A stretch of 64,000 nt of DNA from Patellaria atrata CBS 101060. Lineage: Eukaryota. Below are positions 11,637 through 14,091 of the stretch, one piece after another. A program made the translations under genes and the position numbers. The stretch covers positions 124,001-188,000 of the forward strand of contig MU006095.1 in the NCBI GenBank assembly GCA_010093705.1, read 5' to 3'. Positions within the stretch are counted from its first letter, which is position 1. Each line of letters opens with the position of its first letter. The notes under the pieces were generated by a model. That model saw nothing but the letters and a program-made list of their open reading frames with translations, had not been told where the DNA came from and made no database searches.

Positions 11637-14091
11637 TCAAAAGAACTTCCCCGCCTTTCCGTCCCCGGCAACCTGCTCACGCCCGACAAAACTCTGATCA
11701 TCATCCCGATCCTGATGTGCAAAACTAACCGTATGCACCGGACGATCGAAAACATTGAACCTGCGTCCCCTCGTTCGAGAAAGGACGTACAATACCGCAA
11801 CACGCGTACCGAAAGCAGCAAATGCCCATAGGAGACCGCCAATAGGAGCGGCTACGAAAGCGCCTGGAGGAATGTTAATAGTGGTTAGGGGGTTGAGCCA
11901 AGGGGCGGGGGGAAACAAGATAGGGGACTTACCAAAGGCGCTCCAATCATTCGCGTATAACCCGCCCTCGAGGATGATAAGATTTCCTGCTTTTCTCGCA
12001 TCGCCGTCGAAGTACACGAGCCCGAACAGAAAGACCGTGAAGATACCCCCGAGGCCACCGACGACGACCTCGAAGCCGCGCCACCAGTAGAAGCGGTTCC
12101 ATAGGCCGAGGACTAGCACTGGTATTAATGCAGCGCTGACTAAGTCGCTGATGAGGTAGATCTGGAGGATATCCGGACTCTTCAGCGCCACGACGACTAC
12201 AGGGACAATAATCACCACAACCGCTGCTCTGATCCACCATAGGCCTAGCTTATTTCTGAAAATGTCGTTACTACCAGTGCTCACCATCGCCGACTGAAAG
12301 CTATCGAAAGCGGCAGTGCTCAAGCTGACAACCATACAAAGCACAATCCCCACAACCCACGCCGGCATCTGTCCCAACAGGAGAAAGAAAGAGAGATAGC
12401 CCGTATACGGATCCGTCTCCGGATTCCACGCGCCAGACCAAGTCGCCAACAACCCCGTGGTACCGACAAATGTCAAGATAATCGCAACAACCACGCACGC
12501 AATCGTAGTACCGATACGGAGATCAGCGTCTGTGCGGGAGGCAAAGGTGCGGAGCCAGAAGCCGGAGATGAAGAAGGCGTTTGTGAAGATGGCGACGGGG
12601 AAGATGTAGATGAGTTGCCAGCCGAGAAGGGAGGAATCCAGGAGTCCGGAGGGATCTACAAGACTTTTGTCGATTTTGGTCTCGACGCCCACGGTTATGA
12701 TTCCTACCATGATGAGAAGGAGGACCATTGCGGCTTGAATGTTGTCGGTCAGGAAGGAGACTTTGAAACCGCCAAGTGCTATACAACATAATCAGTATAT
12801 GCAGAGTCTACAGTTCGGGAATCGAGTTCATGGAACAAATGATTGTCGTAGTGTTACTCACAGGTATATATGGTAGTTACTACACCTTGAACTATAATCG
12901 CTGGAAGTCCATCGAGTCCGGTGAGGGCATTAATGATCTGCTGCATGGCAGACAGTTCGGCAACCATGTAAAGGAAAAGCGTAATCAACCTATCGCTGTG
13001 AGTATTATATTTAAGGGTTACTGGCCGGAGGCCGCATATCTCACGTACGTCATGATACTGAGATACAAAGCAGTCACCGCACCATATCTCTGCCGGGTCC
13101 ATTCAGTCAACACGAAACCCTCAGGACATCTCTTCCGAATCTTAGGTCCCAAGAACCCGAAGATCAAGAGTGGAAGAGCGGAGGAGAGCGCATAGATTAT
13201 GAGACCCTGTACACCCGCGATGGTAGCGATCTCTGGATAAGAAAAGAGTATTCCTGAACCAAGAGCTAATAGTGATTGAACTGAGTTAGCAATAGCCTGG
13301 ATATATAGGGGAAGGGGGAAGAGCGGCAGCACATTCCCCACGCAAGCATTATCTTGATCGAGTATTTACGGTTCTTCTCAGCTTCGTCTCTCACATGCAG
13401 ATTCTCTAGTCAGGCACAGATACAATGTGCAGCCTGAGCGAGAAATGTTCTGGAAGTGAGTGACTCGGCGCCCGTAGTGAAGCCGCGCAGTGGCATCTCC
13501 TTATTGTCATCAAACAAGACTAATGGACTTGTCGAGCCAGATAAGGAGAGCCGAACCTGCGGAATTTCTTTCATATACGAACCTCGATAACTGCTTAAGA
13601 TGCTTTCAACACCTCTGAAATTCTGTGCAAACGACCAGCTCTCAACCATCCTCAGGGAACCGATAAACATCGCGTCAGATAAAAGAAAGCGTGCTGCCGT
13701 CTCTCGTAATCTATCGTCCTATTACACTCACCCGACGCTATAAAGTTTAGGGCAAGCGGAATACCTAGTTCGAAGTCAGTTCAGTCATCGACGGTTACAG
13801 TATCGCAAGAACATCTTCATAAGATGGCAGAAGTAGTCGTGAGAGGTGTATGTTTGCAGATAATATGTTTCTAACCCTTCTGTGTGCCATTGCTCGAAAG
13901 CCATTCAGTCTTCGATTGACGTCGAAGACGCCATGCTATGTATAAACCAATAGCCCTGCAGTTAATTAGCTATGATCGGAACCCAGTAAACATATTAATC
14001 GTATATGCGGCGCTACTGCGTCAACCTACAAGAAGGCTCCATATGTCAAATAGATGATAGCGTTCGACGCGGCGAATGATGGAACACCCAT
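11637..14091 (-). CDS. Sodium:solute symporter-family transporter, NCU01977-like (putative thiamine or thiamine-precursor transporter); exons 14091-14030, 13955-13876, 13764-13732, 13265-13049, 12990-12862, 12778-11933, 11863-11637
   Basis: Spliced frame reads MGVPSFAASNAIIYLTYGAFL-AIGLYIAWRL...-GIPLALNFIAS-ALGSGILFSYPEIA...CPEGFVLTEWTRQRYG. All six introns are GT-AG and phase-consistent, and there are many TM segments. Confidence 0.9.
13329..13488 (-). promoter_or_regulatory. TPP (thiamine pyrophosphate) riboswitch aptamer in intron 3 (13731-13266) of the transporter
   Basis: Minus strand: P2 ACGG/CCGT, GCG, extended P3, conserved CTGAGA (13381-13376), CTC-GAT-CAAG-ATAATG-CTTG-CGT-GGG (P4/P5) and P1 GCGCG/TGTGC. 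Confidence 0.92.

Follow-up and report, generated by a model that had tools for sequence, protein, structure and literature searches.

Does the third intron of a minus-strand gene in Patellaria atrata CBS 101060 hold a TPP riboswitch that governs splicing through long-range base pairing, as Neurospora crassa NCU01977 does? A sequence-only reading of a 64,000-nucleotide stretch of contig MU006095.1 (hereafter the window) had proposed so. The pairing mechanism itself is already known and not new: a 2013 paper described it and a 2018 survey covered it. Our analysis makes it very probable that the intron is a canonical OFF switch of the NCU01977/DUR31 type, long-range pairing included.

The host gene of this Dothideomycete (11637..14091, minus strand) has a spliced reading frame that is open from the ATG at 14091 and encodes about 530 amino acids of the sodium:solute symporter family. 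It is the orthologue of NCU01977/DUR31, as membership in the NCU01977 type (Type II) requires. By orthology its product in Patellaria atrata is probably a thiamine transporter; thiamine transport is demonstrated for the Candida orthologue in the accessible text of Donovan et al. (PMC5997356). The open frame places minus-strand introns at 14029-13956, 13875-13765, 13731-13266, 13048-12990 and 12861-12779, and we infer a last one at about 11932-11864 because the database protein P0001 lacks 23 residues there. An exon of 281 residues matches P0001 at 100% identity; the source of P0001 assigns it to Patellaria atrata. Protein homologues at E ≤ 1e-20 numbered 389; the 120 listed are 65-100% identical, the remaining 119 of them being fungal proteins of 65-79% identity, and PF00474 is present in most of these 120, while a Pfam scan of two exons taken singly (cut-off 1e-3) gave no match. 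Compared by eye, the positions of introns 1-3 agree with those of N. crassa NCU01977. The donor of intron 2 (13875, minus strand) is a weak GTTAGA, by eye the same in N. crassa, and most orthologues have GT(T/C)AG(A/G/C) at this place.

The riboswitch intron, the third, is 466 nt long (13266..13731, minus strand) and runs from the donor S1, G/GUGAGU at 13731, to the acceptor AG at 13267-13266. Its removal fuses ...NFIAS with ALGSG... in frame, as in the homologues. CUAAC at 13285..13289 (minus strand), within a conserved block ahead of the acceptor, is the likely branch point. Near the 3′ end lies a TPP aptamer with a long P3 (13323..13486, minus strand), placed within an internal coding-region intron as Type II membership requires. 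The match to RF00059 spans the full model (13485-13317; 39.3 bits, E 5.6e-6); an Rfam scan of the window at the gathering threshold (54.3) returned no match, the aptamer scoring below it. In the Rfam alignment, all on the minus strand, the P1 5′ strand GCGGC-UU-CAC (13486-13477), by eye the same as that of NCU01977, pairs with GUG 13332-13330 and GCCGC 13327-13323 (GUG-CU-GCCGC); the P2 5′ strand ACGG (13475-13472), the GCUGAGA motif (13382-13376) and P4/P5 (13361-13336) follow. Core motifs of the aptamer are common to 38-40 of 41 clusters. An in-frame UGA (13652..13654, minus strand) is reached if the whole intron or its part upstream of the alternative donor S3 (see below) stays. In that upstream part stops occur in frame in 41/41 clusters, but in the other frames too, in 41/41 and 32/41, and so they tell nothing about selection.

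Two segments of this intron are complementary. The first, α (13691..13705, minus strand), reads GAGAG (13705-13701), an A (13700) that is bulged out and CGGCAGCAC (13699-13691), and lies 26 nt downstream of S1. The second, α′ (13319..13332, minus strand), reads GUGCUGCCG (13332-13324) followed by CUCUU (13323-13319), and lies 53 nt from the acceptor; 358 nt separate the arms. They form nine Watson-Crick pairs, the bulge and then five pairs including one G-U, just as the sequence-only reading had it, coordinates and donor spacing included. Two traits asked of a Type II intron are thus present: α is less than about 60 nt from S1 and complementary to α′, and α′ is the 3′ strand of P1, less than about 60 nt from the acceptor. 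In the ensemble of the whole intron (466 nt) the nine pairs have a probability of 1.0 and the five of 0.76-0.98. A further G-U pair (13690-13333, P 0.93) lies beyond the helix first described, and a weaker predicted extension of UUUCUU (13688-13683) with AAGGGG (13334-13339; P 0.63-0.75), which takes the α side to 13683, runs into J4/1 and the P4 3′ strand. At -26.0 kcal/mol the duplex is more stable than the rival P1 duplex (-15.0) and than pairings with the dinucleotide-shuffled upstream intron, which average -17.1 over 200 shuffles (p = 0.010). α′ consists of the P1 3′ strand and a 4-nt tail (13322-13319) that is unpaired once P1 forms. Because all eight P1 pairs use α′ bases that α takes, the two folds are mutually exclusive; the overlap and exclusivity had been claimed from the sequence, and the Rfam alignment, with the P1 pairs inside α′, bears this out.

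A second long-range helix, between the S1 donor region (13730-13719) and the branch-point region (13295-13282), appeared in the window with P of about 0.8. We rejected it as chance: its z of -2.55 is confined to the window (mean z -0.03 over 37), and native combinations did not rise above swapped ones (861/5000).

Conservation and covariation among orthologues had been set beforehand as the test that could refute the pairing. A single metagenome scan with the exon 3′ of the intron yielded 168 confirmed stretches, and we retained the best 80. Matching intron boundaries were found at 68 of these 80 loci; the other 12 were left out, their upstream exon not being found. The window and the 68 loci formed 43 clusters at 85%, and removal of L041, which has no aptamer, left 42. 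In a FastTree phylogeny the orthologues cluster with reference proteins from Dothideo-, Eurotio-, Lecanoro-, Leotio- and Sordariomycetes, five classes of Pezizomycotina. The intron measures 364-705 nt over the 42 clusters, with a median of 475. In an unanchored search, window included, the best partner of α′ begins +15 to +57 from the donor in 37/42 clusters. The duplex beats its shuffles at p ≤ 0.05 in 28 of the 42 clusters and fails to in 14, in 32/42 intron ensembles the probability of the core duplex exceeds 0.5, and RNAalifold recovered the α/α′ helix unprompted from 41 introns. With the window and the transcript L052 set aside, at least 7 of the 9 core pairs are present in 37 of 40 orthologue clusters; those with fewer are L006, L063 and L079. 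GTGCTGC in α′ is kept in 37/41 clusters.

The core columns are nearly invariant, so covariation sits in the flank, where G-C, A-U, U-A and C-G interchange at positions -3 to -6. Relative to swapped flanks, native ones gain 2.35 (38 rows), 2.54 (23 clades) and 2.82 kcal/mol (12 clades) in pairing, the largest p being 0.008 (200 draws) and the four weak or lost cases (L006, L079, L063, L072) being either left out or diluting the difference. The tree shows few changes on both sides of a pair: each flank column from -3 to -7 has 1-3, and -2 has none. The outcome of the test favours the pairing. It also bears on chance, under which α′ would find a fit in any GC-rich 9-mer similar to the P1 5′ strand: in the window the duplex outscored 199 of 200 shuffles and one shuffle equalled it, yet the orthologues refute such an origin by the shared location in 37/42 clusters and the flank covariation, as does the experimental proof in N. 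crassa (accessible text of PMC3597705), and we give it practically no credence.

Some loci depart from this pattern. In L079 the α′ core is lost while P1 is fully paired and both aptamer and alternative donor are kept; in L063 and L072 the pairing is weakened, and the three form a Leotiomycete-like clade. L006 has a damaged aptamer, and its α pairing and alternative donor are both gone.

The window has peculiarities of its own. A 13700 stands where 37/37 orthologues show a G-C just before the CGG core; the best reading is that this one base was inserted into AGAG-CGG and bulges out. As a result α agrees with the published consensus RGCGGYRRY at 8/9 positions, and 10 contiguous pairs precede the bulge; PMC3597705 gives 11 or more for almost every published species. 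The exact consensus is not defining, because the rescued N. crassa mutants M3 and M6 deviate from it yet work (same source). The α of the window pairs with its own α′ at -26.0 kcal/mol and with those of other clusters at a mean of -25.9, 21/37 being better, so the window shows no private compensation.

The inserted A invites the view that selection on α has relaxed and that α is a decaying relic, with retention of the intron or use of the alternative donor exerting the control, as has been suggested for Candida DUR31. The A is unique at an otherwise invariant position, L079 retains aptamer and donor having lost the α pairing, and in DUR31 the regulated intron is shorter and probably has no long-range pairing (accessible part of PMC5997356). 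Yet the duplex is of ordinary strength (-26.0 against a family mean of -25.0 kcal/mol), the AGAG/CUCU flank is preserved across the bulge, and position and spacing are canonical; we hold a relic to be highly improbable.

With a working NCU01977-type pairing as the preferred reading, the switch would operate as follows. At low TPP, α would capture α′, perhaps by way of the free tail 13322-13319, and the base of the aptamer would unfold. Some 360 nt, the alternative donor at 13582 among them, would be looped out, so that the intron would effectively measure about 80 nt (26 + 53). This resembles the gene's other introns (59-111 nt), which suggests that S1 would be used and full-length transporter mRNA made. 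At high TPP, the ligand would lock the aptamer during transcription and P1 would keep α′; the intron would then stay or be cut from 13582, both of which would lead to the UGA at 13654 and an early stop of translation. Closeness of S1 to the branch point may be what affects splicing; why the pairing enhances it, by proximity or by looping-out, is a matter of proposals in the accessible text of PMC3597705. The same text reports from N. crassa that deletion, disruption and compensatory rescue show the pairing to be required. TPP dependence and compensatory rescue are demonstrated there, in N. crassa only, and would extend to Patellaria by analogy; the present analysis demonstrates the complementarity, the exclusivity, the conservation, the flank covariation and a relative's use of the alternative donor.

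Constraining the intron to the aptamer fold costs 18.1 kcal/mol relative to the free fold in a nearest-neighbour model that holds no tertiary or ligand energy; over the 42 clusters this gap has a median of 10.8 and a range of 0-26.2 kcal/mol. A cost of 18.1 kcal/mol exceeds what ligand binding likely repays, which suggests that TPP acts during RNA synthesis. The earlier proposal that TPP binding disrupts the duplex is therefore upheld in its OFF logic and altered in its manner: tentatively, and from the modelled energies, a TPP-locked P1 more likely blocks formation of the duplex than opens it once formed.

The same stability could mean that the duplex is real and a constitutive splicing enhancer, TPP barely switching it and regulation being weak or mainly transcriptional. 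The 15 pairs with invasion of P4, a gap among the higher of the 42, and an extra C-G pair, at the end of α nearer the junction, that the window shares with just 2/37 orthologues all point that way. Against this, the ligand-binding motifs, the P1 5′ strand and the alternative donor all remain intact and conserved, the gap is as large or larger in several orthologues, co-transcriptional folding favours the nearer P1 strand, and the modelled gap contains no tertiary or ligand energy. We regard a mere enhancer as very unlikely, and a TPP-controlled OFF switch as the better account.

The alternative donor itself, AG/GUUCGUA (13576..13584, minus strand; first intron base 13582), reads as N. crassa S3 (nt 495-496), of which it is the homologue. 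It lies between α and the aptamer, as in a Type II intron, and retention of the S1-S3 piece leads to the premature UGA at 13654. Of the 42 clusters 40 have AG/GTTCGT between α and aptamer, where even a wider class of donor-like sites would be expected in 5.4, and the 8-mer is invariant in 39/41, which equals the aptamer core and exceeds α or S1. Among 137 constitutive donors of the same genes (a rough, non-independent recovery) the hexamer occurs once, and the 9-mer occurs 204 times in the 28.7-Mb genome; given this rarity, the donor's place in the intron is not chance.

Use of the donor is seen in a relative. The contig L041 lacks 270 nt, from alternative donor to acceptor, and introns 1 and 2 are absent from it in comparison with the 96% identical L040; judged by its sequence, this single contig is a transcript spliced from the alternative donor. 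The database model P0001 starts at an intronic ATG (13670), splices from the alternative donor and misses the first three exons, and the S1 junction is absent in 21/93 fetched homologues having a recognisable ALGSG junction, so these genes are often mis-modelled. In the accessible text of PMC3597705, regulation in N. crassa was unchanged when S3 alone was mutated; S2 and S4 also exist there, and the single-site mutants suggested that alternative donors are unimportant.

What keeps the donor so constant? Its +3 U and +4 C show no variation. Pairing with U1 presumably explains positions -2, -1 and +5 to +8, and not these two. The donor could be a second arm of the switch, the α state freeing UACGGGC of the P2 5′ strand (13476-13470) to mask it and TPP-driven P2 releasing it. 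Seven pairs are possible (P 0.88 in the window), the complementarity is possible in 40/42 clusters, and the P2 5′ strand was the best-conserved donor partner in an unbiased scan. Such masking, if true, would supply the 'other undiscovered route' for which Li and Breaker left room, and would account for the fixed +3 U and +4 C. The ensembles do not support it, P exceeding 0.5 in 5/42 only; the two segments show no covariation, native combinations being no better than swapped ones (4714/5000 permutations as good), and the pairing is worth just about -4 kcal/mol in 6 clusters. We consider this second arm doubtful. Masking by the P3 3′ strand ACGAAGCU was rejected (P > 0.5 in 5/39, several positions broken). 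Opening the donor seemed to cost more in the α state (5.2 against 4.2 kcal/mol, p = 0.002), but six shifted windows behaved alike (excess 0.06, p = 0.44), and we rejected a donor-specific effect. Other readings are a tuned weak decoy or a protein site. Conservation of this donor is nowhere stated in the literature we covered, which included few subscription papers; the alignment figures of PMC3597705 may show it.

Several other sequences bear transcript-like features. In L052 (about 225, against L070 1493-1540), the junction links S1 with a cryptic AG that lies 47 nt further on, directly before α; the rest of the intron is retained and three other introns are absent from this single, transcript-like contig. 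L030 (1-51) and L076 (1-37) carry short upstream pieces fused to the post-intron exon, with neither aptamer nor S1 exon, and are possibly transcripts from further alternative donors. Two more TPP-like matches occur in the genome, L001 (about 1440-1590) and the weak L002 (about 1500-1580); we take the reading frame after the former to be THI4-like.

The genus Patellaria has no entry in the three supplements of PMC5882874 available to us, and the pairing adds one species to a published mechanism, which matters little alone. More is to be gained from lengths and from the donor. At 466 nt the intron falls outside the ranges of 550-650 nt (Li and Breaker) and 650-900 nt (Mukherjee) given in the accessible texts; these ranges form no boundary, since the 42 clusters span 364-705 nt, and introns of this family are often shorter than the ranges used for sorting 'long-range' from 'short' types. 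The donor, conserved like the ligand-binding core across filamentous ascomycete classes, offers a testable missing piece, and one strong alternative donor makes this intron a cleaner test bed than that of N. crassa.

Among known systems the closest is NCU01977 (Li and Breaker 2013, PMC3597705), 'Type II' in Mukherjee et al. 2018 (PMC5882874). As far as the accessible texts go, the parallel drawn by the sequence-only reading holds for gene, intron, aptamer near the 3′ end, α position and α′/P1 overlap: in both, α is less than 60 nt from S1, α′ is the P1 3′ strand with 12 nt identical by eye, AG/GUUCGU equals S3, and mis-splicing leads to a premature stop. The differences are an intron of 466 against 684 nt, an arm distance of 358 against about 530 nt, the extra A within the α consensus and the predicted P4 extension in the window; S2 (GUAUAA) and S4 (GUUAGA) have no evident counterpart among the window's three AG/GU sites between α and P1. 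Candida parapsilosis DUR31 (Donovan et al. 2018, accessible text of PMC5997356), an orthologous thiamine transporter gene, likewise has an intronic TPP aptamer, a non-consensus second donor and OFF logic through premature stops, but its intron is 351 nt, its second donor is GTTGGA, its control is mostly by intron retention and long-range pairing is thought unlikely. Fungal riboswitches of the NMT1/THI4 type share the aptamer class and the control of splicing; in these, P4-P5 masks a nearby donor in a 5′ UTR intron, whereas in the window P1 pairs with a distant element that is not a splice site, within the coding region.
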